Assembly: GCA_964019425.1 (NCBI GenBank)
Contig: OZ025805.1
Location: 496,001 to 560,000, forward strand
Origin: Flectonema sp. DT1601
Taxonomy: Eukaryota
Direction: 5' to 3'
DNA length: 64,000 nt
Positions 28,038 through 57,432 of the stretch are shown here, in pieces. The notes below the pieces were generated by a model, which did no database searches, had not been told where the DNA came from, and was given only the letters and a program-made list of their open reading frames with translations. Every line of letters begins with the position of its first letter. Position 1 is the first letter of the stretch. Both the position numbers and the translations under genes were made by a program.

Positions 28038-28064
28038 CACAAAAAAAAAAAAAAAAAAAAGAAA

Positions 28065-31000
28065 ATGATACGAAAAGCGGTGCTTCTTATTATCGCAATC
28101 GTGAACTGCTTTGCTCTGTCTCCAATTGGTAGTCGCGGCACTAGTTCCGAAGAAGGAAATTCAATAGCACTTCATGGAGGAAACGCATATGTGTCTGGGA
28201 AGAGTCCTTTTTTTATAGATGTGAGTAACCCGAGTACTCTTTCATCGAAATCAAAGAATTCCATTCCACTTTCTGATACTTTTGACGTAACCCGTTCGAA
28301 TGGGTTTTTAATATTTGGTGACGACCAGTCAATCAAATCAGTGATCTCAACTCAAGTAAGTAAAACTAAAAGTGTTCCGTACGATTGTACGTCAGTTGCT
28401 TCTGATGGTAGCAGTGCGTTGTTTGCTTTGTTGTTGAAATGCGAGGTTAGGAGATACAGTGTTTCAACAAATGGACAGCTCTCTCAACAAAGTAACATCG
28501 TGATTAATGATAAGTTTGGTTACGACATCGCTGTTGATGGCAATGAGATATTCTTAGCATGTGAGACAGCTACTCACATGGTTGATTTCGGCAGCGGATC
28601 TCCGTCAAAAATCTGGACCATCACAACAGATAAGAAATCACAAGCTGTAGACGTCGATACCACAGGAATCTATGTCGGTGATGAAAAACAAGTTAAAATC
28701 TACAACAGACTGTCATCTGGTACACCTCCTCAAACTGCCATACTAAACGGCTTTGATGACATCAAAGACGTCTTAATCAGGGAGAGTATTCTTTTTGTTG
28801 CTAATAAAGGTTCCCCTGGTTTCAAAGCCTTTGAAGTTACCTCCATCTTCACTACTCCAACATTAATATTCACATTCAGCAGTTGTTCTGAAGGGTATGG
28901 GATAGAAGTGGATGAGAATTATGTTTATTTAATTTGTAAGGAAAATTTTTACATTTTTGATTTCGATGATTTTCGTGTACTGCGAACCCCAACAGCGATG
29001 CCGCCCACTGCGATTCCAACTGCAATCCCGACAGCTGTGCCAACAGCGATCCCGACTGCTGTACCGACTGCTGTTCCGACAGCTGTGCCAACGGCGGTTC
29101 CGACTGCTGTTCCGACAGCTGTGCCAACGGCGGTTCCAACTGCTGTACCGACAGCTGTGCCAACAGCGATACCGACAGCTGTCCCGACTGCTGTACCGAC
29201 TGCAGTGCCAACTGCTGTACCGACTGCTGTTCCGACAGCTGTGCCAACTGCGGTCCCGACTGCAGTGCCAACAGCGGTCCCAACTGCTGTGCCAACGGCG
29301 GTTCCGACTGCGGTCCCGACTGCAGTGCCAACTGCTGTACCGACAGCTGTGCCAACAGCGGTTCCGACTGCTGTTCCGACTGCTGTACCGACAGCGGTCC
29401 CAACTGCTGTACCGACAGCTGTGCCAACAGCGATTCCGACAGCTGTGCCAACAGCGGTTCCGACTGCTGTTCCGACTGCTGTACCGACAGCGGTCCCAAC
29501 TGCTGTACCGACAGCTGTGCCAACAGCGGTCCCGACTGCTGTACCGACTGCTGTTCCGACTGCAGTGCCAACAGCGGTCCCAACTGCTGTGCCAACGGCG
29601 GTTCCGACTGCTGTTCCGACTGCAGTGCCAACTGCTGTACCGACTGCTGTTCCGACAGCTGTGCCAACTGCGGTCCCGACTGCTGTACCGACAGCTGTGC
29701 CAACAGCGGTTCCGACTGCTGTTCCGACTGCAGTGCCAACTGCTGTTCCGACAGCGGTCCCAACTGCTGTACCGACAGCTGTGCCAACAGCGATACCGAC
29801 AGCTGTCCCGACTGCTGTTCCGACTGCTGTGCCAACGGCGGTTCCGACTGCTGTACCGACAGCTGTGCCAACTGCGGTCCCGACTGCAGTGCCAACTGCT
29901 GTACCGACTGCAGTGCCAACTGCTGTACCGACAGCTGTGCCAACAGCGGTTCCGACTGCTGTTCCGACAGCTGTGCCAACTGCGGTCCCGACTGCAGTGC
30001 CAACTGCTGTACCGACTGCAGTGCCAACTGCTGTACCGACAGCTGTGCCAACAGCGATACCGACAGCTGTCCCGACTGCTGTTCCGACTGCTGTGCCAAC
30101 GGCGGTTCCGACTGCTGTACCGACAGCTGTGCCAACTGCGGTCCCGACTGCAGTGCCAACTGCTGTACCGACTGCAGTGCCAACTGCTGTACCGACAGCT
30201 GTGCCAACTGCGGTCCCGACTGCAGTGCCAACTGCTGTACCGACTGCAGTGCCAACTGCTGTACCGACAGCTGTGCCAACAGCGGTTCCGACTGCTGTTC
30301 CGACAGCTGTGCCAACTGCGGTCCCGACTGCAGTGCCAACTGCTGTACCGACAGCTGTGCCAACAGCGGTCCCAACTGCTGTACCGACAGCTGTGCCAAC
30401 GGCGGTCCCGACTGCAGTGCCAACTGCTGTTCCGACAGCTGTGCCAACTGCGGTCCCGACTGCTGTACCGACAGCTGTGCCAACAGCGGTTCCGACTGCT
30501 GTACCGACAGCGATTCCGACTGCTGTTCCGACAGCTGTGCCAACAGCGGTCCCAACTGCTGTACCGACAGCTGTGCCAACGGCGGTCCCGACTGCTGTGC
30601 CAACAGCGATACCGACAGCTGTCCCGACTGCTGTACCGACTGCTCTGCCAACGGCGGTCCCGACTGCGATCCCGACTGCTGTACCGACAGCTGTGCCAAC
30701 TGCGATCCCGACTGCTGTGCCAACGGCGGTCCCAACTGCTGTACCGACAGCTGTTCCAACAGTTGTGCCAACGTCGATTCCAACTGCGTTACCGACAGCT
30801 GTGCCAACATCTCCACGGTCATCACCGACTGCGACTCCGCGGCCATCACCAACTCCACAGCCATCACCAACTCCACAGCCATCACTAACTGTTGCTACTC
30901 CACGACCACCAACCGTTGCGACTCCACAGCCATCACCAACTGCGACTTCAACTGCGACTCCACAGCCATCACCAACTGCGCCTCCAACTGCGACTCCACA

Positions 31001-34000
31001 GCCATCACCAACTGCGACTCCAACTGCGACTCCACAGCCATCACCAACTGCGCCTCCAACTGCGACTCCACGGCCATCACCAACTGTTGCGGCGCCTCCT
31101 ATTAGTCAGCCGCCTCCTGTTGTGATGCCTTCAGTACCTTCGACAGCATCACCTGCTCCTCAGACATTTGAAGTACTCGACTGTTATCCCAACCCTTGTG
31201 AAAATAATGGAATCTGTGAAGATCAACCAACTGGTTTTAGTTGTAAATGTCAACAAGGATACGGAGGAACAATTTGTCAAGAACGTCCACTGACTGTGGG
31301 GTCATTTGGTATTGCTAGAGTTGGAAGGAAGGTGTTCGTTCCGTCATCAGAGTTTGAGATCCTTCTCGAAGACGATGATGTCTCTTGTGATTCGAGTGCT
31401 TCTATTTTAATTATAAACAACAAGACGGATATGGAAACCCGTCCTGGAGTTTGGTATCGCATCGCCAAGCGACAATCACTTTCAACTACTCGCACGGCAT
31501 GCGGTTCTGTTGTTATTATTTGGACTGAAACAAAACTTTTATTCAACACAGACGTCCCTGGTAGTTGCAATGTAATAATCCCAAATTGGAACATATCAGA
31601 ACGAGACAACATCCACTACGTCGTATTAGTCGATGGTAGGATGTGGTATTCCGGATTGAATCGAAATATAGTAATCGCTCCGTTATCAGCAGGAATCCAT
31701 TTGATCACTCTGACGGTGGAATTTAAGTCAAATGAAGACTTACCAACAAACCAATACGCGATACAAGTATGGGGAACTGCTTCAGCAGTTAAGATCCCAA
31801 TGTTGAATTCACTTGGTGACGATTCGATCTATTCTCTTACTGAGATGGTATTCCAGGCAACTCAATCATCATTTCCTGGTGAGAGAACCACAGTTATCAA
31901 AGAAGGAGCTGCTTTACTTCAAAATATCGTAACCGCGACTACAGTTCTGTCTCCTTTCAGTATTGATACACTTTTAGATAGCGTCACATCACTTCTCACT
32001 GTTACTTCAACAGCTGATCCGTCTCTGTCTTTAGAAGTCTTACAGTCATCTGGTAAAATATCATCACGAGCGTTGAATGAAAAAAAATTTCTCAAGTTCG
32101 ATTCCGGAGGAGATTTGATTGTGAACGTTGCTGTTGATACTTCTGAAGTGTCGATTGCTGGAGCTGCGACTGCTGACTTCGGTGAGATAACGATAATGAC
32201 TTCGAAACCGATTAGTGTTGGTGTTGAAGTTGTTAAATCAATTAGATATCCAGGAAGTGAAAACAACACTGGTCTGGTGACTACTATTCAGATGATAGGA
32301 GCCTTACACACGACTGTTAGGATTACTATTCCTGTTCCGAGAGTCCTTCTCAGACCAACTCCTTGTAGGATGACTTGGAAGAGTTTTGATCCAATCACTG
32401 AGATGTGGATGACACCATCTCATCCTGAAGTTAAATTCAATCGAAGAACTGTTTTTAATTACAACAACAACTCAACTGAAATGACATCCGACAGATGTTT
32501 GCCTTCGACATCTGAAAGAGGTATTTCAAACCTTGAAACTGAAACAGACAACACCATCACTATCGATGTGGTGTTTAAATCATCAGAACAGAAGACGATT
32601 GGAATCTTTACTGACGGGTCTTTATTACCTTCTGAGGATGTTACGTCTTCTGATCAAAACTTTGATATCGATGATGAACCAGACCTCACGAATACCTTTC
32701 CAATTGCTGTAGTACTTTGTGTTCTTATTATCGCTCAAATCAGTTCTGTTTTAGTACATAATTGTTATGTCAGTCGGATTGAAAATCTTCACAGCAATGA
32801 CGAGTATGAACATGAGAACACATCGAGTGTACCAATCGCATGGGCTGATGATGTCAGCGTCAGAAGAAGTTTTCGAAGCTCAATTAGTGTGACGACCCCT
32901 CAGGGGAGTATGACGACACCTCAGGGAGGAGGATGTTCTATTGGTCGTTCACCTGATTCGAGAACTTCAGGTTTGAGAGGATCGCCTTCGATGAGGAGAT
33001 CACAAAATCGATTATTTGAAATGGGAAACAACGCGATGACGTTACCAAACAGTGAGAGTGATATCGAATCGACTATCGCAGGTAGTCCAGCTACTGATCA
33101 TCACCTCCTCGCATCGTTAAGGAATCCTTCCATTAGATCATCAGCTGCATCGATGGGAAGAATAGCAGTCGATATGCTCTCAGACGACGTTTCAGAAACT
33201 TATTCAGAAACTCAAATTGGGAATTCCGCTGTCAAAATCACAACATTAGTCCGAGAATGTCATTGCCGTATTGATTCCATACTCCAGTGGATGTGGTCTT
33301 ATCACTTGTTGCTTTCGTTGTTTATTTCTTCATCAAAGATGTCAATCTTAAACTACAACAGACCAAAAAGAATGGCCGCCTTCACAGTTTTTGTTAACTT
33401 CGCAATTTTCAGTCAGATCGGAGTAATTGAATTGCGAGGAGAAGACGTGAGTTTGGAATTTTCAATTTTCAGTAGCATTGGAAGTGTGTTTGTTGGGATG
33501 ACTTTGGCTGGTTTTTGCCAAGTTGCTTTTCAAAGTAAAATAACAGATTCGAAGCAAAACGATCTTCTTCCGGTTAAGAAGATCGCTTTCACGACGGTTC
33601 ACATCAAATCATATTCCGGTATCGATTGTCAGAGTATGAGGGAAATAGTTATTTCATCATCCTCAACAAATGAAAAAACACTAAAATCCAACGCAAACAC
33701 ATCCAACAAACTGCAACCTGTTTCTCTACCAGTGATGATAGACTCTGACGGCATTCGTAGTACTCCGGTTAGAATACAGCTAAAGGATGAATCTCAAGCC
33801 ACCACTCACGAAGTTGATTTGAATATGGATTTATTAGTTAGGAATTACGGAGCTACGACTCCCGCTGGAGGTCATTTTAGTATCCTGCGGTGGTTTCATT
33901 TGAAAAAAACTGTGGAATCGAATTCCAAGGCGACCCCTGCCATTTTATTGGCCATCGACTTCAACTATCACGTTAATGATATTTCTCCTCGAAATAACAA

Positions 34001-34856
34001 CAAGTTCGATTCCCTCAGAGGCAATTTTTCTGATCGGTTTAGATCTGAAAAAACATTAGCTGTTTGTGTTTGGCTTGTTGGTATTTTGTTGGGAATTGGT
34101 CTTTCAACTGCTGTGTCGCTGTACTCTTATGGTGGAGGTGTAATGATGTTGTTTGTTGTCGTAATGTGTAATTTCATTTTAGCTTCTGATCGTTTTTTTA
34201 GTGAATTAGTTCCGCTGTTTGTTTGCGGATTGCCTGCTGGAGTGCTTGCGATTACTTTGTTTCACTGGTATCAATTATCAACCAGCTGGACATGTGCTCA
34301 CGCTGTATCATCCTGGGCTGTGGGTATGTTGTTGTGGACAACGTCATCTCACAAAACTATAATAAGAATGATCCTTTCCGTAATATTTGTGTTGCTTTGG
34401 GGGACCCAATTGGCTCTTGTATTGCATTTTCACGATTCGCTTAAAAAGAATAGCAACGTGCCATCAGTTGGCAAGTTCGATTCCGTGTGGATGCCCATAT
34501 TATTGTCAATTCTTGGGATAATATTGACATTGAGATATTGGATGTCAATCTGTTCAGGGAGGCTACCTCTAGAAATACCTTCTTTCATCTATAAGTTTGG
34601 TTGGTTTGTTTGTTTTGCTGGGTTTGTTATTGTTGCTGTGGCAGCTTTGATTCTCCCATACTGGTCTAATGCTCAATGTGATGGATTACTGCGTGGGATG
34701 GGTTTGGTTATGGTTGTCACACTAGTGGTGGCTGAACCTCTCAAACAAATTGTTTTCTATTCCAATTCCCCAGCTGGTGATCACAATTCTGTTGCGTCTG
34801 CTTTGGGTGTCTTCTCCGAGGTAATCGGGTTGTCTTACGTGGTTCTGAATTTTTAA
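28065..34856 (+). CDS. Giant surface membrane protein: signal peptide, beta-propeller-like N-terminus, about 150 PTAV repeats, EGF domain, multi-pass C-terminal region
   Basis: 2263-aa uninterrupted ORF. EGF motif CYPNPCENNGICEDQPTGFSCKCQQGYGGTIC. Many C-terminal hydrophobic helices. Confidence 0.88.
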   Translation: MIRKAVLLIIAIVNCFALSPIGSRGTSSEEGNSIALHGGNAYVSGKSPFFIDVSNPSTLSSKSKNSIPLSDTFDVTRSNGFLIFGDDQSIKSVISTQVSKTKSVPYDCTSVASDGSSALFALLLKCEVRRYSVSTNGQLSQQSNIVINDKFGYDIAVDGNEIFLACETATHMVDFGSGSPSKIWTITTDKKSQAVDVDTTGIYVGDEKQVKIYNRLSSGTPPQTAILNGFDDIKDVLIRESILFVANKGSPGFKAFEVTSIFTTPTLIFTFSSCSEGYGIEVDENYVYLICKENFYIFDFDDFRVLRTPTAMPPTAIPTAIPTAVPTAIPTAVPTAVPTAVPTAVPTAVPTAVPTAVPTAVPTAVPTAIPTAVPTAVPTAVPTAVPTAVPTAVPTAVPTAVPTAVPTAVPTAVPTAVPTAVPTAVPTAVPTAVPTAVPTAVPTAVPTAVPTAVPTAIPTAVPTAVPTAVPTAVPTAVPTAVPTAVPTAVPTAVPTAVPTAVPTAVPTAVPTAVPTAVPTAVPTAVPTAVPTAVPTAVPTAVPTAVPTAVPTAVPTAVPTAVPTAVPTAVPTAVPTAIPTAVPTAVPTAVPTAVPTAVPTAVPTAVPTAVPTAVPTAVPTAVPTAVPTAVPTAVPTAVPTAVPTAVPTAVPTAVPTAVPTAVPTAIPTAVPTAVPTAVPTAVPTAVPTAVPTAVPTAVPTAVPTAVPTAVPTAVPTAVPTAVPTAVPTAVPTAVPTAVPTAVPTAVPTAVPTAVPTAVPTAVPTAVPTAVPTAVPTAVPTAVPTAVPTAVPTAVPTAVPTAVPTAVPTAVPTAVPTAIPTAVPTAVPTAVPTAVPTAVPTAVPTAVPTAIPTAVPTAVPTALPTAVPTAIPTAVPTAVPTAIPTAVPTAVPTAVPTAVPTVVPTSIPTALPTAVPTSPRSSPTATPRPSPTPQPSPTPQPSLTVATPRPPTVATPQPSPTATSTATPQPSPTAPPTATPQPSPTATPTATPQPSPTAPPTATPRPSPTVAAPPISQPPPVVMPSVPSTASPAPQTFEVLDCYPNPCENNGICEDQPTGFSCKCQQGYGGTICQERPLTVGSFGIARVGRKVFVPSSEFEILLEDDDVSCDSSASILIINNKTDMETRPGVWYRIAKRQSLSTTRTACGSVVIIWTETKLLFNTDVPGSCNVIIPNWNISERDNIHYVVLVDGRMWYSGLNRNIVIAPLSAGIHLITLTVEFKSNEDLPTNQYAIQVWGTASAVKIPMLNSLGDDSIYSLTEMVFQATQSSFPGERTTVIKEGAALLQNIVTATTVLSPFSIDTLLDSVTSLLTVTSTADPSLSLEVLQSSGKISSRALNEKKFLKFDSGGDLIVNVAVDTSEVSIAGAATADFGEITIMTSKPISVGVEVVKSIRYPGSENNTGLVTTIQMIGALHTTVRITIPVPRVLLRPTPCRMTWKSFDPITEMWMTPSHPEVKFNRRTVFNYNNNSTEMTSDRCLPSTSERGISNLETETDNTITIDVVFKSSEQKTIGIFTDGSLLPSEDVTSSDQNFDIDDEPDLTNTFPIAVVLCVLIIAQISSVLVHNCYVSRIENLHSNDEYEHENTSSVPIAWADDVSVRRSFRSSISVTTPQGSMTTPQGGGCSIGRSPDSRTSGLRGSPSMRRSQNRLFEMGNNAMTLPNSESDIESTIAGSPATDHHLLASLRNPSIRSSAASMGRIAVDMLSDDVSETYSETQIGNSAVKITTLVRECHCRIDSILQWMWSYHLLLSLFISSSKMSILNYNRPKRMAAFTVFVNFAIFSQIGVIELRGEDVSLEFSIFSSIGSVFVGMTLAGFCQVAFQSKITDSKQNDLLPVKKIAFTTVHIKSYSGIDCQSMREIVISSSSTNEKTLKSNANTSNKLQPVSLPVMIDSDGIRSTPVRIQLKDESQATTHEVDLNMDLLVRNYGATTPAGGHFSILRWFHLKKTVESNSKATPAILLAIDFNYHVNDISPRNNNKFDSLRGNFSDRFRSEKTLAVCVWLVGILLGIGLSTAVSLYSYGGGVMMLFVVVMCNFILASDRFFSELVPLFVCGLPAGVLAITLFHWYQLSTSWTCAHAVSSWAVGMLLWTTSSHKTIIRMILSVIFVLLWGTQLALVLHFHDSLKKNSNVPSVGKFDSVWMPILLSILGIILTLRYWMSICSGRLPLEIPSFIYKFGWFVCFAGFVIVAVAALILPYWSNAQCDGLLRGMGLVMVVTLVVAEPLKQIVFYSNSPAGDHNSVASALGVFSEVIGLSYVVLNF
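28988..31085 (+). repeat. Coding tandem repeat: 12-bp PTAV units followed by PQPSPTA(T/P) units
   Basis: CCNACNGCNGTN repeats with synonymous variation, and a higher-order 264-nt duplication (29787 vs 30051). Confidence 0.97.
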
Positions 34857-45149: not shown

Positions 45150-48006
45150 ATGTCTCACCCAAACATGGATGAACACTTTGCGGGTTTAGCGGAGAGTGAA
45201 AAGCTGGAGACCCGCATTGCACGATTGCAGGAGGAGCTGAATTGAAGTTTACAATACGCAGAAAAGAGAGGGACTCGGGTGAACGTGTAAAAGCTGAGAT
45301 CCGCAAGGAAATTGTTGAAACCAACATCGTCAAAGCTGAGAATCAGAAAAATTTCTGGAAATTGAAGGAAGAGAATCAGAAAAATATCCGGAAATTGGAA
45401 GAAGAGGAGATGCAGGTCAGGTTCGGAAAAGGTATTTTGGTATCACTGCAAAAGAGAGGGGTTTCTACCTGAGTCGGCTGGAAACTGCAATCGCCGATGC
45501 TAAAGCTGAGAAAACACGACTCGCACTCGTTGGATCACAAGTATGCTTTTTACTTTTTTGAATTGGGGAAAAGGGGTAGGGGCTCGGAAAGGTGGTGTGA
45601 CAAAGTGAACCGCCATTGTTTTATATGTCAGGTTTATGACTCTAACAATATTAATAAGATACCGAAAAGGTGTTTTATTAAAGATGGCTCCAAAATCATG
45701 GAAAAAACCATAGACTTTGAGCACAAGACCAATGGAAACAAGGCATGCTTTAACGCCTCTCAAAAGATCAAACATTATCAGATTGATCCAAAAAAAGAAC
45801 ACTTTAAGAAAGCTCAAGTTTTAACCCGAGTATTTCATGGAAGGATAAATTTTTCAAGAAATGGGAATAAAAAGGTTACGATGGATAATTCGAATATTTC
45901 AAAGAATGTCACCAATAAACCCAGCCAGGTTGCGAACTAGTAACAGCATGAGGAATGTTTTTTTTATATACATGCATGATAACAAAGTAACTGCATCCTA
46001 GTAACTTAGGTTGTGACTTGTTTTCTACTTTACCATGAGTTTTATTGAAAAGCTGTTTTACTTACCGTTTAGTTAACCTTCCCAACACTAAAACAGGGTG
46101 GTCACAAAGTGGAATATTTGTTAGAGTGTGATAGTGAAGAAGGAAATGCGATCTTGAAGAGATGGGAACACCTAAAGTTCGATCCTTACAATCAGGAGTT
46201 GATTTGTCGCGAAAGTGCAAAAGAAATAATCCTTGACTACGCTAAGAAGGTGGTGCAGAAGGACGAGAAATATTGGACTCAAGACGATAAATCAAAGTTG
46301 CTGACTTCGTATGGAGTGAAAGGTACGGGCAAAACAGCAGTCATGCGAGCAATGGTCGGATTCGATGGGAAGCCAGGGTGGGTTCAGGCAGCTGACCCAA
46401 ATGCAAGGGCCGTGACGTCTTCATTCAATGAATGTGGTGGCAAGGTTGATATGTTCGGAAATGATTGCGAGAAACTAGGTTTACATCGGACAGACATTGC
46501 ATTCGGTAGGCACATCTTAAGGTACAATGGAATGTGTGAAGAGGATGTTCAAAGGGTTGGAAGCTTCAAAACTGCTGTGTTCCTCCTGCGGAAAAAGCTT
46601 GGGCAAACAATCCCAGGCACCCTGGTCATTGGTATTGATGAACTCGCAATGATTGAGGGAGAAGCTGCCAAAGTGGTGAGCAGTCTTATGCAGCAGCAGG
46701 ATTATTCCATTGGATATCCCGATGCATACGGAGGTGCGGTCATTTTTATCTTGTCCGCATTAACTGAATCTTTCGCTTCGAAAGTGCAAACTGCTTCAGG
46801 TCGCCCTATCCTGACAAACATTCCCCTCCATAACTTGCCACAGGCTGAAGCGTTCGATCTCCTCCCTGCTGACATCAGAAGTGCTGCAAAGAAAGATGGA
46901 CGGATTCAAAAGCTGATTAACCAATGTGGTGGGAATCCACGGGCTTTGTTTGAAGGTGTCATGAACTCAGAGACTACCTTGTAAAGGGGGACCAAGAGGT
47001 GTATGATAGCGATATTGCCAAAGCCCGATCGACAATTCTTAAGGACTGCAAGATAATAAGTACAATTCAGGGTCACACTCTGATGGACATTGTTTCTACT
47101 TGGTTCGCGGTTCAAGAACCCACTGAAGAATGGAGGGATACCATGCGTGGTGCAGGATTCCTCCAACCTGTTCAGGGTAAGGATTCCAATGAGATATTTT
47201 TCCCGCTGATGCTTGCTGAGTGGTCAAAAAGAAAGCAGTTGGGTTCTCTCATGTCGCACCACATTGCAGGCTGCTATGACAGCGACGATCAGATAATGAC
47301 GGGACAAGAGAAGAGGGTCGAGCATCTGTTAATGCACTATGAGATAGTTCGAAAGGTGGCATACCATCATCTGAAAAAGAAGCCACCGATCGGTGCATTC
47401 TTCAAGCACTCAACTGTCAGTCCTGCAACAAAAGCTACCGATCGTAAATGCGACCTGCTTAGGGCTGAAGATACGTTCCTGATCGAATTTAATGATTTAT
47501 CTACAAACTTAGTCAGTCATGTTTCGAAGTTTAAGGAGCTTACTGACGGTGATTGGAAGTCATTCAGCTATGGGCACACTCTCTACTCCGATCTCTCCAA
47601 CGAAAAAGGAATTGAATACATCACACCCCACTTTCGTCTGATCAATGGAAAGTCAGTCCTCACAGCAGAAGTGTGCCAGATCAAATATACACAGTCGGCT
47701 GATTGGCCCAATTGGCAAGAGAAGCTCAAGACATCACCTGGGGTGAAAGCACTCAACAAGAAGAAGATCCCCTGGTTTGCTGTGTACTATGTTAGCCATT
47801 CCCCTATTCCCCAGACATACAAGACCGACTGTATTCATTTTCCGAAAGACGCCCTGGACAAGTTCACTGCTCCGTTAGGGATACTGCACCTTGAGAAGGA
47901 AACACTGAAATCCCCCCTTTCTGGGGCAATGTTGAGACATCGCCCATGGGTGTCACCTGCTAAGCTACCTTCTCGGATCCCGCGAGTTCTTTTGAAAATG
48001 TTCTAA
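45150..48006 (+). pseudogene. Crinkler/RHS-like P-loop NTPase + restriction-endonuclease-fold gene, frameshifted
   Basis: Walker A GVKGTGKT and Walker B LVIGIDE lie in 46109-46984. A one-base frame change near 46970 continues into 46999-48006 with KGIEYI...EVCQIKYT (PD-(D/E)xK-like). Whether the frameshifted coiled-coil 5' exon from 45150 belongs to this gene is tentative. Confidence 0.6.
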
Positions 48007-49480
48007 TCTGCCGCTTCTAACGTCTTTTGTTATTCCCGTTCTTCCATCCTTTCTTCTCAACCATTTGAATGTGTGGAATCATAATTTGTTTTGGTATCGT
48101 TATGTTATGTCAACGATGTGCCAACACAAATAGAATTCCTTTGCTCTATGTTCCTTTTTTTTTTGAAATAAATCACGCTGGTGCCAACCTGTATGGTTGG
48201 TCTGCCCCTGCAAATCTTATGACTTCGTTCACAAGGGATGAACTGAACCTGGTGTCGGATTTGAACGTCCACATCCAGAAATAGTGATAGCAATAGTAGT
48301 CATTGTTGTATCTCAATGGATGGGTTTTATAGAACGTCGTTCTTTAGCAAAACCAAGTATCTATTTTATCTAACATACAAGACCGACTGTTAGTACAGAA
48401 GTTACAGGTGATAAGCATATTGAGGTCCCCCCTATTCCCATGAAGGACAATTCTGTAAGATCTCTTGTAGTTCTCGCATAGAACTTAGAAGGACACAGGA
48501 GATGGTATTATTTCGGTAAAACCTCCCCACCCTGGACTTTGCCCAACATTTAATGTTGAACTATGTAATTGTTGCTAACAACCCTGTTATTCCAAACTTA
48601 TTTTGGTTTTTATGTGTTATTTTTGTTGTTTTTATCTTTTTTTATTTTCTTATTTGCAAAACTTAAATGAGATTATTCGAGTCCGTGTCATGCGGTCTCG
48701 TTCTCCTTTTGCAAAAATTCTTCACAAAGCTTTTATTATTTGTGTGATGTAGGTTTTTCCTCCTTGTTTGGCAGTCTTGCTTTTCTCTTATGTTCACTTT
48801 AAGTAAAAAAAAAAAAAGATTATTATTTTGGTAATCAAGTCGTTTTAATTGTCAACTCTTTAACAGGGAATGGATATTATTAATTTGGTGATTTGGTATA
48901 TTTCAGATGTCTTTTTTTTATATTAGTTGTCAAAAACAGGTCGTAGAAAATATAAAAAAAATTGATTCAAAATTTTGATACTCAAAAACTGCCCACTCAG
49001 AAGTGACATTGTTTCCTTACAACTCATTAATAAAGTCAGAGAAGATGTTTTTTTGTGAGAGGATGAGATAGACAAACATTTTTCAGCTTTTTCTTAGTTG
49101 CTCATTTTTTGGTAGATGGCTCAGATATCTCACCTACTAGCTTCATTCTTTCTACAGTCTTATGTTATTACTTTGCAAGTGTGTTGTGTGTTGGGAGATT
49201 TCACCAGACTAAAAAATATAATCAAAAGGAGAGTCCGGGGGACAACGACAGGAAGCGGCGAGCACGGTGAGGGATGGAAATGATGGAGGCCCGACACCAA
49301 CTACCAACAACAAGAAACCCACTCTGCCAGAGTGGTACATTCACGCAGCGTGGGCTAAAGCAACACCTACGCTTAAATTCTCAGAAGCAATCGATGCCTC
49401 CAAAAACAACTCGGACGGACTCGTGGTCATCAGCTCAAAGGCTGATTATGAAGCACTGAAGCAAACACGAACGAAGGGCG

Positions 49481-50572
49481 ACTGGGCTTCCATGTTACTC
49501 CCGCTTCCTTAGCAAATCCATCCATTCTTCTTGTCGCCGCCTCTACATCTTCCTTCTTACCAAACAACCTTATGTTGTCAACCCACCAATGAATACCAAC
49601 ATGTTTCTCAGCAAACTCCTCCCTCACAAACATTGGATCACCGGCCACAACTGCTGCAATGGTGTTCATGATTTCCGGTGCACAAACATGTCCCATTGGC
49701 AATCGTGTCAAAGCAAAAGTCCTTCCAGATGAATCGAAAAATGTAAAGAACTTCTGTGACTGTTCTGGTATTTGGATCTGAAAGAAACCAGTCTTGAAAT
49801 CCCTGCATGAAGCCACCTCAGAACGAACTGCATCCAAGTAGTATGAGATTCGGCTCGTATAGCGGAACATTCGGCTCATATCCAAAATCTGTCAGGTTTT
49901 CATTTGCTTCTCGCGTCCATAAAATGAAGCGTTGCCAGCCCCTCTCCTCATACACTGTAAAAGGTATGTTCTCAGACAAAGGGGCCGTGCCAACAGGTAC
50001 CGCAATCCCACAGTTTACAAATTCTTCTGCGTGTTCAGAGCTGAAACGTGATTTCTTCCTTCCAACCCGGTTCATTTTCTAGAATTCATTCAGGTAATTT
50101 TCCACCAAGCTTAGCACCGGAAAGAAATAATCAAAGGAATCAGACAGAAAAGTGTATGATTCCGAAGTTGGAAAAATGAACAAAACAACAGACATTTTTT
50201 ATATATTCTTTAGCCTTCTATTTTTCAAAAGAAATTCTTTATACAGCTCGATCACTTCTTTCTCTCACACTCACGTTTTCGAAGTGGAGCTGAGTCCAAC
50301 GAAAACGGACTTCAGTTACCCCGCCGCAGCGAGCCACCTCGAACCAGGGTGTTCTTGCAATCGCGCGTTCTAGTGTAATCGCTTGTTTTTGGTGCGTGTG
50401 TAGTTTTTAAGTTTTATTATTTCGACAGGTGCAAAGCATGGAAGGGCAATTACTCCTTTAACACAGGGAACGATAAAGACAAGACATGCTTGAACCTCTC
50501 CAAGATCGCTGGATGCATTCTGTCTTGAACCATCTCAAGATCCAGAAACTGGTTTCAGTTGAGGCAACATGG
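49481..50572 (-). mobile_element. Decayed RT fragment of a related YR retrotransposon, interrupted by a mini-element
   Basis: Translates to HVAS..LDLEMVQDRMHPAILERF, HAEEFVNCGIAVP, DFKTGFFQ, LPMGHVCAPE, WWVDN and TWKPS, collinear with the RT of 52037-55144. It is frameshifted. Confidence 0.9.
50078..50452 (+). mobile_element. About 375-bp non-coding mini-element with YR-family termini
   Basis: The start TCTAGAATTCATTCAGGTAATTTTCCACC..AGCACC resembles the start of A. The end CAGGTGCA..GGAAGGGCAATTA resembles the end of B. Removing it rejoins the RT remnant. Confidence 0.75.
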
Positions 50573-50584
50573 TAATTAGCCTTC

Positions 50585-50843
50585 TCAAAATTCCATTTAG
50601 GTAATTTGCCACCGAAACTGAGCACCAAACAAAAACCGCCGTCAGCGGGTTTTGAACCCTCGACCGCCATTCTCGCAGACCGGCGTTCTATCAATTGAGC
50701 TATGTAGCCACATAATCGACGTTTCTTTTATTTCTATAAGTCAATGTCTCTATTAGTTTTCTGACGATATCAAATATTTCTATCCCTTTATCAGTTCTCA
50801 CACCCCTGTCTTCATCACAAGAAAACTTATATTTAAATTAAGT
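50585..50843 (+). repeat. Split direct repeat A1 (259 bp)
   Basis: Identical by eye to 55226-55484. Confidence 0.95.
50636..50709 (-). ncRNA. tRNA-like (degenerate) Pol III-type unit within repeat A1
   Basis: GGCTACA TA GCTC AATTGATA GAAC G CCGGT CTGCGAG AATGG CGGTC GAGGG TTCAAAA CCCGC TGACGGC GG, then TTTTT. Canonical tRNA spacing with A- and B-box-like motifs, but the stems are mismatched. Confidence 0.7.
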
Positions 50844-50849
50844 TAAATA

Positions 50850-52106
50850 ATGACTCGTGTAAATTTTGAGTTCCCTGAGTTCCTAGTGGAGATTTGGAAG
50901 GCACGAATGGGTGAGGAACCGCCAAAGAAGTTGGATAATATTAACTTGGATGAGCTGATTGCATGCATCCCCTTTAGCATCGATCTAAGTACATTGAGAT
51001 CGGACAAGGAGACGAGGAGGTTGATCCAAGGCACACTGGCTATGTGTCTTGGGATCTCAAGCGACGCAGCCAAGACACTTTCGATGAATAAGTGTCTAGT
51101 AATACTGGGGGTTCTATCAAGGAGCCGCTTGCAGTTGGTCAACCAGAGCGCCGCCCGGATGAGCGAGCGGATATCCAAGGGGGGGTCGGATAGGTTGGTG
51201 ACACACGACGAGGCGGAGGATGCGATGGGATCGCTGCAGCAGGGCACGGACACGCTCCGAAGCGACACCAAGCAAGGATTCGACTCGTTGAGAAACGAAT
51301 GTCAGAAGGAATCCCAATCGGTGAGGAGAAGGGTTGGGGAGGCCGCCGAGAAAGCTGAGAACATCGGGGGCATGTGGGAAGCATTCAAAGAGCAACAGGT
51401 TCTACAACAGCAACAACAAGATAACATCATCCAGCAGCTCACACAGCAACAACAAGATCAGCAGGACCAGAATACTGCATTGTTCCAGAGCATCAGTCAA
51501 CAACAACAGGTCCATCAGGAACAACAGGCAGCCGTGATACAAGGTATCATGCAGGAATTAGCAGGTCTGAAGAAGAGGTCTACCACAACTCAGCAAGGGC
51601 CAGTACCTCAAGCACCAAAGACGGAAGAAGAAGAAGCAACACAGGAGGTGACCGACCCATCTGCAGCCAGAGATGTAAAAAGATGGGCAGCAGTAATGAG
51701 TTCGGGAAGGACCGAGGCCCTGGTACACGGGATCAGAGAGAGGTATGTTAACAGCCTCGAATACAAAGTTGGGGGAAGCCAACTTCTCAGTTATTTCAAG
51801 CAATTGAAAAACTTTATACTCGGGTTCGAATATGTAGTAGCGTGGGAAGAAAACCCCCACTTCGTAGAGCTAGGCAACGATTTGTTGGAGCAGCTGCGGA
51901 TTCAGCATTACTTCTGCAAGGATGGGACGAAGAGATCCGAGCTGGAGATGATAATGAAAGTGGCATCGGAAGACCCGTTGGAGAAGGCAAACGCCATAGC
52001 TAAGAGGAACAAACATGTGAAGCTGCAGCAACCAAAATGGAAAGGAGGGAAGGCGTCTGTTTCCACATACCCAGCATCGGGAAACGGGAGAGGGTTCGCG
52101 AAGTGA
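50850..52106 (+). CDS. Gag-like ORF1 of the YR retrotransposon
   Basis: First ORF, 6 nt after A1. Coiled-coil/Gln-rich with a basic C-terminus. A homologous fragment lies at 55790-56470. No CCHC knuckle seen. Confidence 0.8.
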   Translation: MTRVNFEFPEFLVEIWKARMGEEPPKKLDNINLDELIACIPFSIDLSTLRSDKETRRLIQGTLAMCLGISSDAAKTLSMNKCLVILGVLSRSRLQLVNQSAARMSERISKGGSDRLVTHDEAEDAMGSLQQGTDTLRSDTKQGFDSLRNECQKESQSVRRRVGEAAEKAENIGGMWEAFKEQQVLQQQQQDNIIQQLTQQQQDQQDQNTALFQSISQQQQVHQEQQAAVIQGIMQELAGLKKRSTTTQQGPVPQAPKTEEEEATQEVTDPSAARDVKRWAAVMSSGRTEALVHGIRERYVNSLEYKVGGSQLLSYFKQLKNFILGFEYVVAWEENPHFVELGNDLLEQLRIQHYFCKDGTKRSELEMIMKVASEDPLEKANAIAKRNKHVKLQQPKWKGGKASVSTYPASGNGRGFAK

Positions 52107-55100
52107 CCAGCCGACCGGACCCTGCAAGTAACAACAGTACTCCCAAGACGAAGGTTAGAGTACAGGAATATGCAAGTATTAGAAACACTCCCATTACCAA
52201 GGTTGAAGTATTTAAGGAAACCAGCAAGACTTATGCAGAAGCGCTCAAAACAGGTATTGAAGGACGGCCGACTACGAACAAGGTTAAGAAGATCCATAAG
52301 TTCGATCGTTCGAGGCCCGGACAACAATATAAAATCCGCAGTCCGAGGATCCCCCAGCGGAAGGGAGATGGAAGCAAATTCAGACAGAGAAACGGGAGAG
52401 ATAAATTCCACACCAATCACAGTCACAACGGATACAATGCCCTCAGAAGAATTAGGAAAAAACATAGTTGGAAGAATTCTGCTGAACATGATGGAGGGAT
52501 GCCCCGAGGGGGCAAAGAAGCGGCATGCGGAGGATTCCGTTACATACATAGAAGCGACGGAAAGACTTCAAGAAACACTAGAGAAGATGTGGGCCTCAAA
52601 GACAACAGCAAGCAGGCGGAATCTGTGGAGAAGATTTCGGGCCTGGGCAAGGGAAAAGGAGAAACCAGCAAACGCAAGCTCGGCTGTTCTGTTCGTGATG
52701 GCGACAGGTGTGGCAGTGCAGGGGCTTCTCTCTTATGCAAAGAGTCTATCTGCAGTGATGGGGAGAATCGGAATAGAAAACGGACCTCTGTTGAGCTTAG
52801 CTGCAGCACTGAGGGCGAACGGAGCGGCAATACCACTAGAACAGGCAACGCCAATGACAAGTTTCGACCTGGTGGATTGGGCAAGGGGGCAAGAATTAAA
52901 GACCCACTTGGCAATGCTAGTGTGCTGGAAGACTGCATCAAGATGGGGCGAGACCGCAGCGCTCTCAAGGGACCAGTTCATCTCTGTAAGTCCGTCAGAG
53001 ATCATTATCGATTGGTTCCGCACGCCGAAGGGAAGGAGGGCAAACCCTTACTCGCCAAGCAGATGGACGGTGATAAAGGGGAATCACACAGAAGAGATAA
53101 AGATCTTGCTGGATGCGATGGGGGAGTTCAAAAAACTACACCCGTGGGACACGTCAAAATTAGTGAAAACGTTCCAGCAAGACGGCAGGATGAAAAGATA
53201 CACCGCCCACTCAATAAAAAGGGGTGCGATAAGTCATCTGTTGGAAGTTCTGGCATCCGACCAAGAGCAGCAAGGACTCACAGAAGGGCTGATAAGCAGG
53301 CTGGCCAAGCATGCAGGAGTGTCGGCTCTTTCGGACACCACGCTGAGGTACGGGGGGAACCCAATTGCAATGGCGAGGGCGTTAAAGACAGGGGATGTCA
53401 CCTGTTTCCTGTAGTTGATAGATCAAAAAATGCGAGCGAACGGGATGTGATGCGGAGCGTAGCAGCTCAGTTCACACACAGAACAAAGAGCACGCGCATT
53501 CCCATAACGAAGGAGGAGATATCTTCACCACTACATGTGGCCCCTACACCTAAGATGGATGTTTCAGCTGTGAGGGGGAGGATGCTGCCATCGGTCCTGA
53601 AGAGGTTTGATTATGTTTGGGACCTCACCTTCTTTCCTAAGGATTCTTCTGTCAATGCACGGCTCTCGAGGAGGGCAACTTCGAAGTTGGCAGGGAAACA
53701 TGCAAGAGAATTGGTTGAGTGTGGTATTGCAGTGCCGAGTGATTCTGTACCGCTGTCTCGGAATGTACCATTTACAGTGTATGAGGAGAGGGAGACGGGG
53801 AACAGACAGCGGTTCATCCTCTGGACAAAAGAGCAGAACGAACTGATCTCGTCTGGGGGATATGAACCATTCGTTCCACTGCAGCACATTTCTTGTTACC
53901 TGGATGCTGTACATTCGGAGGTGGCATCCTGCAGGGACTTCAAGACTGGATTCTACCAGGTCTGCATACCTGAGGGGTCAACTTCACTCTTCAGTTTCTC
54001 TGATTCAGCTGGGAAGGTTTACTCTTTGACTCGACTTCCGATGGGTCATGTGTGTGCCCCAGAACTGATGAACACCATCGCTGCAGTAGTTGCTGGTGAC
54101 CCGCTGTTCGTTAAGAAAGAATTTGCGGAGGAGGAAGTTGGGATTCACTGGTGGATTGATAACATTAGGTTATTTGGTCCCAAGGAGAAGGTTAAATGCG
54201 CAGCTGAGAGGATGGACTCCTTTGCCAGAATGGCAAACATCACATGGAAACCAAGTGATACTGTGGATCTCTCTCCGAAGTATGAGTTCTTGGGGGTCAC
54301 CTTTGATCACCATACAGACAGGGTGAGCTTGGGGACCAAGATTGGGAGAAAAATCAAGAACACCAACCTTGATTCATTGACTGCATCGGAGTTGGAGTCC
54401 TTAGGAGGTCGCCTGTTGCATGCCAGCTCCATTGTTGGAGTTCCACCTGGGAAGTACTGGTTTAGCTTGAAGTATCTTCGCAGAGTCACAAATTACTTGA
54501 ACAAGGGAACCCTACAAGTACAGCAGGTACTAAAATTGCCCCGTTCAGTAAGGAAGGAATTAGAAATGTGGATCGGTGCTGTGCAGAAGGAGAGAATAAT
54601 TATGCCTGAGCAGAAAGAGGGGAGGACTGCCGAAGTGTTTGTAGATGCCTCATTGCAGGGATGGGGAGGTGTCATTGTTTGGAAAACAGGTGAGTTGGAA
54701 ATTCTTGGTGCGGCATGGCCTGCTGGTGAAGACCGACATATAAATATCCTTGAAGCGGACGCTCTTGGGAAGACACTCAAAGGAATTGCAAAGGCCGACC
54801 ACCTTTCCATCTGGGTTGACAACACTACAGTTTGTGGTGCTTTTCGGAAGAAGATGTGTGTTCGCTCACACAGTCTCAACAGGTGTTTGATAACTGCGAT
54901 TGAATGCCTTTTAGTTTTGAAATGTTCCTACTCCCTTGCCTGGGTAAGCACGAAGCTAAACCCAGCAGACATTCCTTCTCGAGAGGAAGTCTCACACGGA
55001 ACGAGAGCGAAGGTTGAACAAGCGTTGGGGTCGTTCTTTAACTCGCGTGGTGGTGGTGGTGCCGGTGTCCCGTCGAATCGAAACGGCCCGGTACAACCCC

Positions 55101-55144
55101 TACGCAGAAGTAATCTGCACCACAGTGTAGATTCTTCTTTGTGA
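52037..55144 (+). CDS. Reverse transcriptase-RNase H ORF with a long N-terminal extension overlapping the YR gene
   Basis: RT motifs DFKTGFYQ, RLPMG, WIDN and FLG. RNase H motifs VFVDAS, INILE, WVDN and NPAD. The recognisable RT region begins at about 53450. Confidence 0.93.
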   Translation: MERREGVCFHIPSIGKRERVREVTSRPDPASNNSTPKTKVRVQEYASIRNTPITKVEVFKETSKTYAEALKTGIEGRPTTNKVKKIHKFDRSRPGQQYKIRSPRIPQRKGDGSKFRQRNGRDKFHTNHSHNGYNALRRIRKKHSWKNSAEHDGGMPRGGKEAACGGFRYIHRSDGKTSRNTREDVGLKDNSKQAESVEKISGLGKGKGETSKRKLGCSVRDGDRCGSAGASLLCKESICSDGENRNRKRTSVELSCSTEGERSGNTTRTGNANDKFRPGGLGKGARIKDPLGNASVLEDCIKMGRDRSALKGPVHLCKSVRDHYRLVPHAEGKEGKPLLAKQMDGDKGESHRRDKDLAGCDGGVQKTTPVGHVKISENVPARRQDEKIHRPLNKKGCDKSSVGSSGIRPRAARTHRRADKQAGQACRSVGSFGHHAEVRGEPNCNGEGVKDRGCHLFPVVDRSKNASERDVMRSVAAQFTHRTKSTRIPITKEEISSPLHVAPTPKMDVSAVRGRMLPSVLKRFDYVWDLTFFPKDSSVNARLSRRATSKLAGKHARELVECGIAVPSDSVPLSRNVPFTVYEERETGNRQRFILWTKEQNELISSGGYEPFVPLQHISCYLDAVHSEVASCRDFKTGFYQVCIPEGSTSLFSFSDSAGKVYSLTRLPMGHVCAPELMNTIAAVVAGDPLFVKKEFAEEEVGIHWWIDNIRLFGPKEKVKCAAERMDSFARMANITWKPSDTVDLSPKYEFLGVTFDHHTDRVSLGTKIGRKIKNTNLDSLTASELESLGGRLLHASSIVGVPPGKYWFSLKYLRRVTNYLNKGTLQVQQVLKLPRSVRKELEMWIGAVQKERIIMPEQKEGRTAEVFVDASLQGWGGVIVWKTGELEILGAAWPAGEDRHINILEADALGKTLKGIAKADHLSIWVDNTTVCGAFRKKMCVRSHSLNRCLITAIECLLVLKCSYSLAWVSTKLNPADIPSREEVSHGTRAKVEQALGSFFNSRGGGGAGVPSNRNGPVQPLRRSNLHHSVDSSL
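52170..53414 (+). CDS. Tyrosine recombinase
   Basis: Catalytic set TASRWGE (R), TPK (K), HSIKR (HxxR), KH (H) and TLRY (Y). Confidence 0.93.
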   Translation: MQVLETLPLPRLKYLRKPARLMQKRSKQVLKDGRLRTRLRRSISSIVRGPDNNIKSAVRGSPSGREMEANSDRETGEINSTPITVTTDTMPSEELGKNIVGRILLNMMEGCPEGAKKRHAEDSVTYIEATERLQETLEKMWASKTTASRRNLWRRFRAWAREKEKPANASSAVLFVMATGVAVQGLLSYAKSLSAVMGRIGIENGPLLSLAAALRANGAAIPLEQATPMTSFDLVDWARGQELKTHLAMLVCWKTASRWGETAALSRDQFISVSPSEIIIDWFRTPKGRRANPYSPSRWTVIKGNHTEEIKILLDAMGEFKKLHPWDTSKLVKTFQQDGRMKRYTAHSIKRGAISHLLEVLASDQEQQGLTEGLISRLAKHAGVSALSDTTLRYGGNPIAMARALKTGDVTCFL

Positions 55145-55225
55145 TCTCAGACTTGTTAACTGCATGTTCATTCAATTAAGTATACTTCTCTTTCCCAGGT
55201 GCATACAGTATAGGAAGGCTAATTA
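55061..55225 (+). repeat. Split direct repeat B1 (165 bp)
   Basis: Matches 55503-55667 with one mismatch seen (55220 T vs 55662 C). Confidence 0.95.
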
Positions 55226-55484
55226 TCAAAATTCCATTTAGGTAATTTGCCACCGAAACTGAGCACCAAACAAAAACCGCCGTCAGCGGGTTTTGAACCC
55301 TCGACCGCCATTCTCGCAGACCGGCGTTCTATCAATTGAGCTATGTAGCCACATAATCGACGTTTCTTTTATTTCTATAAGTCAATGTCTCTATTAGTTT
55401 TCTGACGATATCAAATATTTCTATCCCTTTATCAGTTCTCACACCCCTGTCTTCATCACAAGAAAACTTATATTTAAATTAAGT
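55226..55484 (+). repeat. Split direct repeat A2 (259 bp), containing a second tRNA-like unit at 55277-55350 (-)
   Basis: Copy of 50585-50843. Confidence 0.95.
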
Positions 55485-55502
55485 CCCACCCACCCTTCCC
55501 CC

Positions 55503-55667
55503 GCCGGTGTCCCGTCGAATCGAAACGGCCCGGTACAACCCCTACGCAGAAGTAATCTGCACCACAGTGTAGATTCTTCTTTGTGATCTCAGACTTGTTA
55601 ACTGCATGTTCATTCAATTAAGTATACTTCTCTTTCCCAGGTGCATACAGTATAGGAAGGCCAATTA
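55503..55667 (+). repeat. Split direct repeat B2 (165 bp)
   Basis: Copy of B1. Confidence 0.95.
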
Positions 55668-56500
55668 CTATACTGTATGCACCTGGGAAAGAGAAGTATA
55701 CTTAATTGAATGAACATGCAGTTAACAAGTCTGAGATCACTTAGAATAATCTACACTGTGGTGCAGATTACTTCTGCATAGGGGTTGTACGCTTGCAAAG
55801 GAAGCGGCGCACAACAAGAAGAACCGTAACTGCCTCAACAAATTACCCCCCAACTTCACCAAGTGAGGAACCTGCGTCCAGCCTGTCACTCTTTCCATAC
55901 CAAAAAGGAAGTTTGAGAGGTTCTCAAATTTTTCAACCAGACCATATTTTAGACCGGAAACATATCGGCCATCAAGCTTCATCACTACGTGTCGCCCCCT
56001 TCGCTTCAAGGATTTCCTCCCATGCCTTGACCCTTTGCACATGACAGGTCAGTTCTAGGTGCTCTTCATGATCAGGTTCAGGCTGAGTAGTCTGTTGTAT
56101 CACCGGTGGCTGGAATGGCTGAGGTGGCATCCCCACTGGTGGCTGATGTGATAGTGGCGGTGGTGGTGGTGGCATCGGCATCTTCACTGCTTCGTGTTGC
56201 TGTGGTCGTGTCCCTTGTCTTTCTACCCGTGTTTTTAGCGAAACGAGTCCCGCCATTAGCGACTGCATTGCAGCCTCGGTTTGTTGTTGCTGTTGCTGCT
56301 GTCTCATTGTAAAATCTTCGATGGTTGTTCTTATCGACCCCATCTCTTCAGCCGTGTTTTCCCTGTGCCTGGCAACCGATTCAAACCTCTGACCCACTCC
56401 AGAAAAGGTTGCCTCTGTCCGACTTTCTAACACCCCATGGCCTTCCCCCCACCACCCACGTATCAACCACAACCTGAATGCTGTTCTGCACTTGCCGCAA
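55668..56500 (-). mobile_element. Deleted related YR element (divergent gag fragment fused to a partial B repeat), tail-to-tail with the intact copy
   Basis: 55668-55790 is the reverse complement of B with about 4 mismatches. Minus-strand ORFs give RYVSGLKY..NFLFGMERVTGW..PHLVKLGGNLLRQLR, compared with gag RYVNSLEY..NFILGFEYVVAW..PHFVELGNDLLEQLR. The 5' boundary was not found. Confidence 0.85.
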
Positions 56501-56570
56501 GGTCTGCATTTAGTTAGTTAGTTGGTATTAATAATTATTAGTCAATCAGAAAAAAAGAAAGAAAATTTTG

Positions 56571-56752
56571 TGGACAACAAACTTGGTTTCGGGCTAAGAT
56601 TAAAAACAATCTGTCTTCGGACCATTCCTTACCTGCCAAAAGAAGGGAGAGGGTGGGAAAATTCAATTGAATGCAAAAGTTCGCAGGACAACAAACAAAT
56701 AATAATGGTTGATTTCGGGCTAAGATTCAACAATATTTCTTCGGACCATTCC
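56571..56752. repeat. Imperfect direct repeat (two copies of about 55-65 bp)
   Basis: ggacaacaaac...tttcgggctaagatt..aacaat...tcttcggaccattcc occurs twice. Confidence 0.75.
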
Positions 56753-57432
56753 CCCTTAGGTAGTTAGAATATGAATTTTTATTATAAAAAGTGCACTAAA
56801 ATAAAATATAAGAAAGAAAAGTTATAAAAACACATTGTTCTGCCGTTCCATAATACACTGTGGAAGTTTCAGGCCTTAATCTTATACTACTGACCACATA
56901 TCCCTGTGCCTAATTTTACAGATCGCACCCTCCCCGATTCCAAAAAATCGAGCAAAAGTATATCGTGTAACCTTCTTGCTCAGGCGGTGAGAAAATGGTG
57001 TTTTTTGTTCGCAAAAAAAAGGAATGACTGATATATTTTTTTTTTGTATTTTAAAAAAAACGATGACATCACACAATACACAACAAACACAACAAACAGT
57101 TGGAACAACGAATGTCGATTCTGTAAAGTATCGATTAATGAAAAAGACACTGGATCTGTGATGGTAATGGACTTAGACCAGTTACTACCAACACTCGCTG
57201 GTAAGGACGCCACAAAAGCAACATTCGTACAGGCGATGGAATTGTTTGAGGTATGTTTTGACACCTCAATGCTTCAGCCGTGACTAATGAAAGAATAGGG
57301 AAGTTTCATACAGAAGAACTTGGGAATTGCCTACCCAGAATAGTTTGTTGTCGCATGGCACAAGCTTTGGGTGTCAAGCAAATTTTGGTTGCCACCTTTC
57401 TTCCTGGGCTGAGAAAATGCTTGTGATTGTTT

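Follow-up and report, generated by a model that had tools for sequence, protein, structure and literature searches.

The split repeats of an autonomous YR retrotransposon, found in the 64,000-nucleotide stretch of DNA analysed here (the window), carry on the strand opposite to gag a full-length derivative of a tRNA, the stems of which are broken and the box B core of which is intact. As far as seen, this unit appears to be confined to a single subfamily of the element. The reading preferred here, albeit tentatively and with somewhat less than even confidence, is that a tRNA gene was captured and may now offer Pol III initiation factors an optional site to land upstream of gag, where it would open chromatin or stop read-through.

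The element spans 5.1 kb (50585-55667, + strand), with its split direct repeats arranged as A1 ... B1 A2 B2. Its parts are the following:

50585..50843, + strand: repeat A1, 259 nt
50850..52106, + strand: gag-like ORF, 418 aa, so named on the basis of position only
52107..53414, + strand: tyrosine recombinase (YR) ORF, 435 aa, given as a stop-to-stop frame
52004..55144, + strand: RT/RNase H (RT/RH) ORF, 1046 aa, overlapping the YR ORF
55061..55225, + strand: repeat B1, from repeat comparison
55226..55484, + strand: repeat A2, identical to A1
55503..55667, + strand: repeat B2, with one difference from B1

Such split repeats, together with the gag-like, YR and RT/RH ORFs, bear out the YR-retrotransposon setting that had been proposed in the first-pass annotation of the window, and both the repeats and the order of the ORFs match the layout of VIPER/TATE elements given in PMC6681497 and PMC12278014. 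The three ORFs, namely a gag-like frame followed by the overlapping YR and RT/RH frames, exceed the size limits used in PMC6681497. No meaningful Pfam match was obtained for the gag-like ORF. The domain evidence for the YR ORF is weak (PHROG integrase, E 0.007; Phage_integrase look-alikes, 0.98), and the RT/RNase H ORF matched RVT_1 at E 4e-4, below the cut-off; the domains of these two ORFs are weak but consistent with a VIPER/TATE-like YR retrotransposon. Among the 80 matches listed, the named relatives were Diplonema papillatum proteins, at ~40-51% identity, such that a diplonemid host is likely. No named VIPER/TATE protein was found among the matches from the RT protein searches, and the RT tree, built by a quick method from 37 rows, included no VIPER/TATE reference.

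The RT of the window element, whole or in pieces, accounts for three 90% clusters of 20, 12 and 3 records (35 in total), and the 7 RT records of the subfamily that were tested are 98-100% identical to that of the window. The subfamily is young, multi-copy and recently amplified. A contig from a sequencing run (run X1) is identical over 50585-51001 and may be from the source sample; the sequencing runs yielded no coverage of the solo A'B' unit at 50080-50452. A collection of viral contigs contained neither a relative of the element nor a match to the pattern of the tRNA-like unit.

The unit itself comprises the following features:

50637..50709, - strand: tRNA-derived unit in A1, 73 nt with class I spacing (G1 at 50709, N73 at 50637)
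50691..50702, - strand: box A (T8-19), with G19 changed to A
50648..50658, - strand: box B (52-62), with the GGTTC core and C61-C62 intact and A at 60
50631..50635, - strand: T5 run, Pol III terminator-like, two bases after C72
55272..55350, - strand: second copy of the unit and T5 run, in A2 (unit 55278-55350), identical to the copy in A1

The existence of a tRNA-shaped minus-strand unit in two copies had been proposed from the letters alone, and each of the bases then listed was found in register, namely, T8, A14, G18, C32-T33, A37, C48 and G53-TTCAA-C61. Likewise, the nominal anticodon GCG, the orientation antisense to gag and the distance of 140 nt between G1 and the gag ATG at 50850 could all be read from the sequence; no CCA is present. 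The GGTTC core of box B with C61, a feature of type 2 Pol III promoters, is retained. The terminal GG of box A, which is invariant in tRNA genes (PMC2695483) and is listed as variable in snRNA-linked tRNA-like units (PMC4950102), is changed by G19A; position 11 of box A is invariant in trypanosomatid tRNA genes (PMC2695483). Because six of the 21 pairs are broken (2-71, 4-69, 5-68, 11-24, 30-40 and 50-64), three of them in the acceptor stem, the unit is not a working tRNA, in agreement with what had been concluded earlier. When pairs were counted in the same fixed register in 40 real tRNAs, 36 broke 0-2 and the other four broke 5-8. The minimum-energy fold of the unit contains no cloverleaf (z -0.58), and ARAGORN made no call on the unit at default settings; with a lowered threshold, the program returned 205 calls in the window and was uninformative.

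Similarity to covariance models of tRNA, which had been named as a check, was observed. The Rfam tRNA model aligned with the unit over its full length (1-71 of 71) at 16.8 bits, below the gathering value of 29. The chance of such a score is ~1e-4 per repeat A for that one family and ~0.03 per 64-kb window; therefore, Rfam alone provides only moderate support. A second covariance model, built from 32 plasmid/phage tRNAs with BLAST-matched tRNAs excluded, scored both copies of the unit at 38.0 bits (E ~2e-10, by a rough calibration), with the next site in the 64 kb reaching 10.9. The same model yielded 59 matches scoring 20-83 on tRNA arrays, training members included. When the 79 nt were compared with phages by blastn, 34 of the 40 records listed (of 99) coincided with an annotated tRNA gene, in most cases the same redundant tRNA-Ile (E 2-8), while all eight of the matches fetched from phages and plasmids fell on ARAGORN tRNAs. 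The best of 113 prokaryotic/phage tRNAs aligned with the unit ungapped, with 53 of 73 positions identical. A protein search with the antisense frame gave 19 matches, three of which were other copies of the element; among the remaining 16, the 13 inspected look like tRNA genes or tRNA-derived repeats in the same frame. At least 15 of 21 pairs were formed in 0.1% of shuffles, and the chance of a T5 run starting no more than 8 nt from the unit is ~0.014. At the level of sequence, the unit was shown by these comparisons to be a full-length tRNA derivative. A mere chance resemblance, as might be supposed from the score below Rfam gathering, the silence of ARAGORN and the fold lacking a cloverleaf, has a negligible probability, being refuted by the gap-free alignment and by the 38 bits against the 10.9 of the next site; that every fetched BLAST match is a tRNA likewise speaks against it.

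As the unit has a T run and lacks CCA, we infer that it was captured from a tRNA gene or an unprocessed precursor. Insertion of a tRNA-derived SINE does not fit, given that the T5 run comes directly after the tRNA part, with neither body nor tail, and that the sequence beyond is the start of A common to the sister subfamily. Among the 113 prokaryotic/phage tRNAs, the nearest isotypes were Asp, followed by Ala, Trp, Gly and Ile. An xCG anticodon together with G73 would presumably fit Arg in terms of identity elements. A second tRNA-like unit suspected by eye at 50320-50385 was rejected, with 27/1000 shuffles reaching its score and a rank of 12 among window segments; this region aligns better to B (1/1000 shuffles), and Rfam and both tRNA models found nothing there. 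Elsewhere, ENA contigs from another organism (P0207 and P0213-P0217) contain ~250-nt tandem repeats in which a tRNA-like unit shows up through recurring spurious ORFs; one of the clusters comprises 20 members.

Retention of the boxes relative to the stems was also considered. In our own tally, deviations affect 1/19 or 2/20 positions in the boxes versus 7/40 outside (Fisher p 0.19 or 0.36). When only positions with a conservation of at least 70% among 40 prokaryotic tRNAs were counted, 3/19 were mismatched in the boxes versus 3/15 outside, with two of the three being purine swaps. The polymorphism outside the boxes in five other copies gave p 0.20, or p 0.44 for the two shared changes. Each of the six broken pairs can be attributed to a base that lies outside the boxes. 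Every one of the box-versus-stem tests leans weakly to box retention, and none is significant.

Through spurious antisense ORFs, the unit was detected in five other copies of the window subfamily, four containing it whole and one from position 40 on; the flanks of at least four of the five differ from those of the window. Four changes are visible as amino acids in these copies, namely, one in the acceptor stem and three in the anticodon arm, of which two are shared and the third is a deletion of one codon. The box codons (8 of 24) show no amino acid-visible change, and 17 codons of the A end are likewise unchanged, in a comparison that is blind to silent changes and in which sequencing error is possible. 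The expectation that the boxes would recur in other autonomous copies thus held within the subfamily and failed beyond it, where a sister A repeat and all five distant loci considered lack the unit. The sister repeat lies just upstream of the element:

50080..50452, + strand: solo A'B' unit of the sister subfamily (P0138 cluster), tRNA-like unit absent

This solo unit resembles A at its start (score reached by 0/1000 shuffles) and B at its end (1/1000), with the B part encoding the last 18 residues of RT P0138. In the RT tree, two sister lineages are nearest to the window element, and P0138 represents one of them (67% RT identity; 22 records). Six tested long members are 99.1-100% identical, and the P0138 subfamily is, on sequence evidence, as young as that of the window. 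At the place of the unit, A' holds an unrelated A-rich sequence with no Rfam or covariance-model match, an absence seen in one solo copy rather than in a gag-linked A1, such that loss in that copy alone is possible. At the five distant loci (28-42% RT identity), the unit was absent in each case, with a best score of 10.6 bits, where L002 offers a complete B1-A2 stretch and L004 no repeat region. No match to the unit (Rfam, tRNA model) was found upstream of a gag-like relic at 55842-56517 either. Being absent from the sister solo repeat and from the five distant loci, the unit is therefore not a family-wide requirement, and the conservation across related loci known of snRNA-type divergent promoters was not seen.

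As a possible account of these observations, a tRNA gene or unprocessed precursor would have been captured antisense into repeat A, with the unit then being inherited through A2, which would regenerate A1 in each replication cycle in split-repeat elements. The boxes may still load Pol III factors, giving rise to an antisense RNA of ~75-80 nt, while the cleared 5' side of the unit would face the pyrimidine tract (~50780-50820) and gag and could favour Pol II entry for synthesis of the sense RNA. The module would accordingly represent subfamily-specific promoter turnover and not a core replication signal. The observed base for such an account consists of the tRNA derivation, the broken stems, the intact box B, the position and orientation of the unit, its occurrence in further copies of the subfamily and its absence from one sister repeat.

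Precedents for a promoter or boundary role come from trypanosomatids, not diplonemids. The analogy to divergent tRNA-like promoters of trypanosomatids drawn in the first-pass annotation holds, in that snRNA genes are driven and flanked by transcribed tRNA-like sequences in which box A is loose and GGTTC is conserved (PMC4950102). In T. brucei, a nucleosome-depleted region is found directly upstream of tRNA genes and Pol II termination often occurs at tRNA genes (PMC5359979), and peaks of acetylated H3 follow internal tRNA clusters (PMC2695483). In D. papillatum, transcription is polycistronic and trans-splicing occurs (PMC10161547). Against a Pol III-factor site stand the change of G19 in box A, the solo repeat of the young P0138 subfamily that does without the unit and, as stated in PMC5359979, the fact that no TFIIIC orthologue has been identified in T. 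brucei. Of the functions raised earlier, the looser forms of promoter and of regulator or insulator, that is, a boundary or a site of open chromatin, would offer the best functional reading. A bolder version, according to which a YR retrotransposon re-invented the euglenozoan divergent tRNA-like promoter by capturing a tRNA gene backwards into that part of the split repeat which is regenerated, with the boxes setting the element's own start or boundary in a genome lacking gene-specific Pol II promoters and new copies being expressed wherever they land, is doubtful, and rather unlikely to be correct.

The alternative that comes close behind a Pol III-factor site, accounting for the data almost as well, is that the copy of a tRNA gene entered repeat A of one master lineage and has since hitch-hiked, decaying without a role, with the boxes being intact by chance. 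This is a serious possibility, if short of probable. It agrees with the absence of the unit from the solo repeat of the sister subfamily and from the five distant loci, with the loss of G19, the six broken pairs and the codon deleted from the anticodon arm in one copy, and with the lack of significance in the box-versus-stem tests. It agrees less readily with the full length, box B and T5 run all having been kept after at least 8 substitutions, or with all of those tests leaning, weakly, to box retention. More remote is the idea of a Pol III transcript of 75-80 nt that, by pairing with A2 in the genomic RNA, would feed RNAi and limit the element. Here, complementarity is perfect as A1 equals A2, the boxes and T5 run would permit a discrete RNA, and Dicer-like, Argonaute, Piwi and RdRP homologues exist in D. 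papillatum (PMC10161547). Such regulation is nonetheless improbable, given the recent amplification of the subfamily (35 records in three clusters, with 98-100% identity in the 7 tested) and given that the tRNA shape beyond the boxes would be left unexplained.

Two further proposals are less probable again. In its strict form, the suggestion of a captured promoter has Pol III synthesize the genomic RNA from a divergent start, as in trypanosomatid snRNAs, at ~104 nt from box A, near 50806. This position (T8+104) is still within A1, 44 nt upstream of the gag ATG, and fits a split-repeat RNA starting within A1; moreover, no T5 occurs along 4862 nt of the sense strand. The spacing is, however, a prediction rather than evidence, as every position 104 nt away lies inside A. 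The scarcity of T runs is not significant in block shuffles (p 0.055 and 0.11) or relative to the element's own codon use (p 0.11); T-run depletion was discarded as a signal since it reached significance only against host codon use (p 0.004, 0.013), a comparison confounded by a GC3 of 0.54 versus 0.36. The sense strand contains seven T4 tracts, the first at 50864, only 58 nt past the predicted start, and in L. major Pol III terminates at T4 (PMC2695483), making Pol III synthesis of the genomic RNA very unlikely. The other proposal, a self-encoded primer, in which reverse transcription would start from the antisense RNA annealed to A2, is geometrically possible. The primer of DIRS-type elements is described as unknown (PMC7192593), and a whole circle could in principle be restored if synthesis began in A2 and then jumped from A1 to A2. 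Yet, the sister subfamily appears to prime without the unit, B2 has been kept nearly identical to B1 although such a cDNA would not include it, the element offers no further site of complementarity above 10 nt, and the tRNA-like units of Helenus were judged not to be primers (PMC10886601). As such, a role as primer seems the least likely of the functions considered.

Several known systems come close. In the TRIMp3 elements Helenus (tRNA-like) and Cassandra and Ajax (5S-like), a derivative of a small-RNA gene likewise resides in the terminal repeat, with conserved boxes and a non-working RNA structure, and is copied with the element (PMC10886601). TRIMp3 are, however, short non-autonomous LTR elements with a PBS and PPT, whereas the window element, a YR element of 5.1 kb, is autonomous and has three ORFs as well as split repeats. 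Moreover, the TRIMp3 unit is proposed to make the template RNA (PMC10886601), implying a sense orientation (not stated for Helenus), whereas the window unit is antisense and has its own T5. The tRNA-like sequences upstream of trypanosomatid U2 snRNA genes are, like the unit, divergent and euglenozoan, with a loose box A, a conserved GGTTC, a T tract and no cloverleaf (PMC4950102). They are conserved across 19 species and drive a short Pol III RNA that starts 104 bp away from box A (PMC4950102), whereas the window unit faces a coding unit of 4.9 kb, in which a T4 is reached after 58 nt, and occurs in one subfamily as far as seen. A role like that of trypanosomatid tRNA genes serving as Pol II boundaries would provide read-through termination and open chromatin by a transcription unit; those genes are intact host genes at fixed loci (PMC2695483, PMC5359979), whereas the unit is a decayed copy on a mobile element.

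In the descriptions of VIPER, TATE and SIRE repeats given in PMC6681497 and PMC12278014, no tRNA-like unit is mentioned, unlike repeat A of the window element; a count of the term 'tRNA' in the main text of PMC6681497 gave 0. Likewise, no description of an antisense tRNA-like unit in an autonomous YR element was found in the open literature, covered mostly through titles and the starts of abstracts. What was already known are small-RNA-gene units in terminal repeats (Cassandra, Helenus, Ajax) and divergent tRNA-like snRNA promoters; what is new, in that no description was found, is the antisense unit in an autonomous YR element.

The unit bears on how VIPER/TATE-type elements are transcribed and primed, and euglenozoan retroelements face polycistronic transcription. 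Two young sister subfamilies, apparently in one genome, one with and the other apparently without the unit, offer a natural experiment on a captured tRNA box module. If functional, the unit would extend small-RNA-gene capture from non-autonomous LTR to autonomous YR elements, and to an antisense layout. If a passenger, it would be a multi-copy source of tRNA pseudogenes for annotators of diplonemid genomes and little more.

Examination of the ends of the element and its surroundings yielded additional observations. At the junctions of both the full element and the solo A'B' insertion, CT is found, with TT to the left (50079-50080, 50453-50454, 50584-50585 and 55668-55669), a hint of a crossover core of 2 nt and of a preferred target; according to descriptions of VIPER/TATE elements, no target duplication is made. 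Not every copy may follow this rule, as three of the five other copies seem to have another base to the left of A. An inverted copy of B (96%) at 55665-55790 forms a 126-bp hairpin with B2 and would, if transcribed, yield long double-stranded RNA; the Rfam miRNA matches correspond to nothing but this hairpin. The last 12 nt of a B end lie inverted at the left junction (50573-50584), and the target of the full element seems to have been the B end of a copy on the opposite strand. The B ends of three relatives (55180-55225, 50420-50452 and 26486-26530) share a pyrimidine tract, CAGGTGCA and a terminal AATTA, where the pyrimidine tract with AG resembles a trans-splice acceptor.

Older remains were also noted. 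A minus-strand element at 49430-50572, with an RT fragment 98% identical to P0138, is interrupted by the opposite-oriented solo A+B of its own subfamily (50080-50452); solo AB repeats have been described for Cafeteria Ngaro (PMC8547959) and as SIRE. The gag-like relic (55842-56517, - strand) is frameshifted and 36% identical to gag over 58 aa, and upstream of it, at 56588-56755, two ~40-nt direct repeats recognized by eye match neither A nor A'. A decayed RT end with a B repeat, 74-79% identical to the window element, lies at 26486-26891 (- strand). Apart from mobile elements, a 2272-aa ORF (28038-34853, + strand) with long Cys/Ser/Asp-rich repeats probably encodes a secreted or surface protein. 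Finally, two overlapping ORFs in different frames at 46073-48006 (+ strand), the first with a weak ATPase_2 match (E 0.0014), are one gene with a frameshift or an intron.
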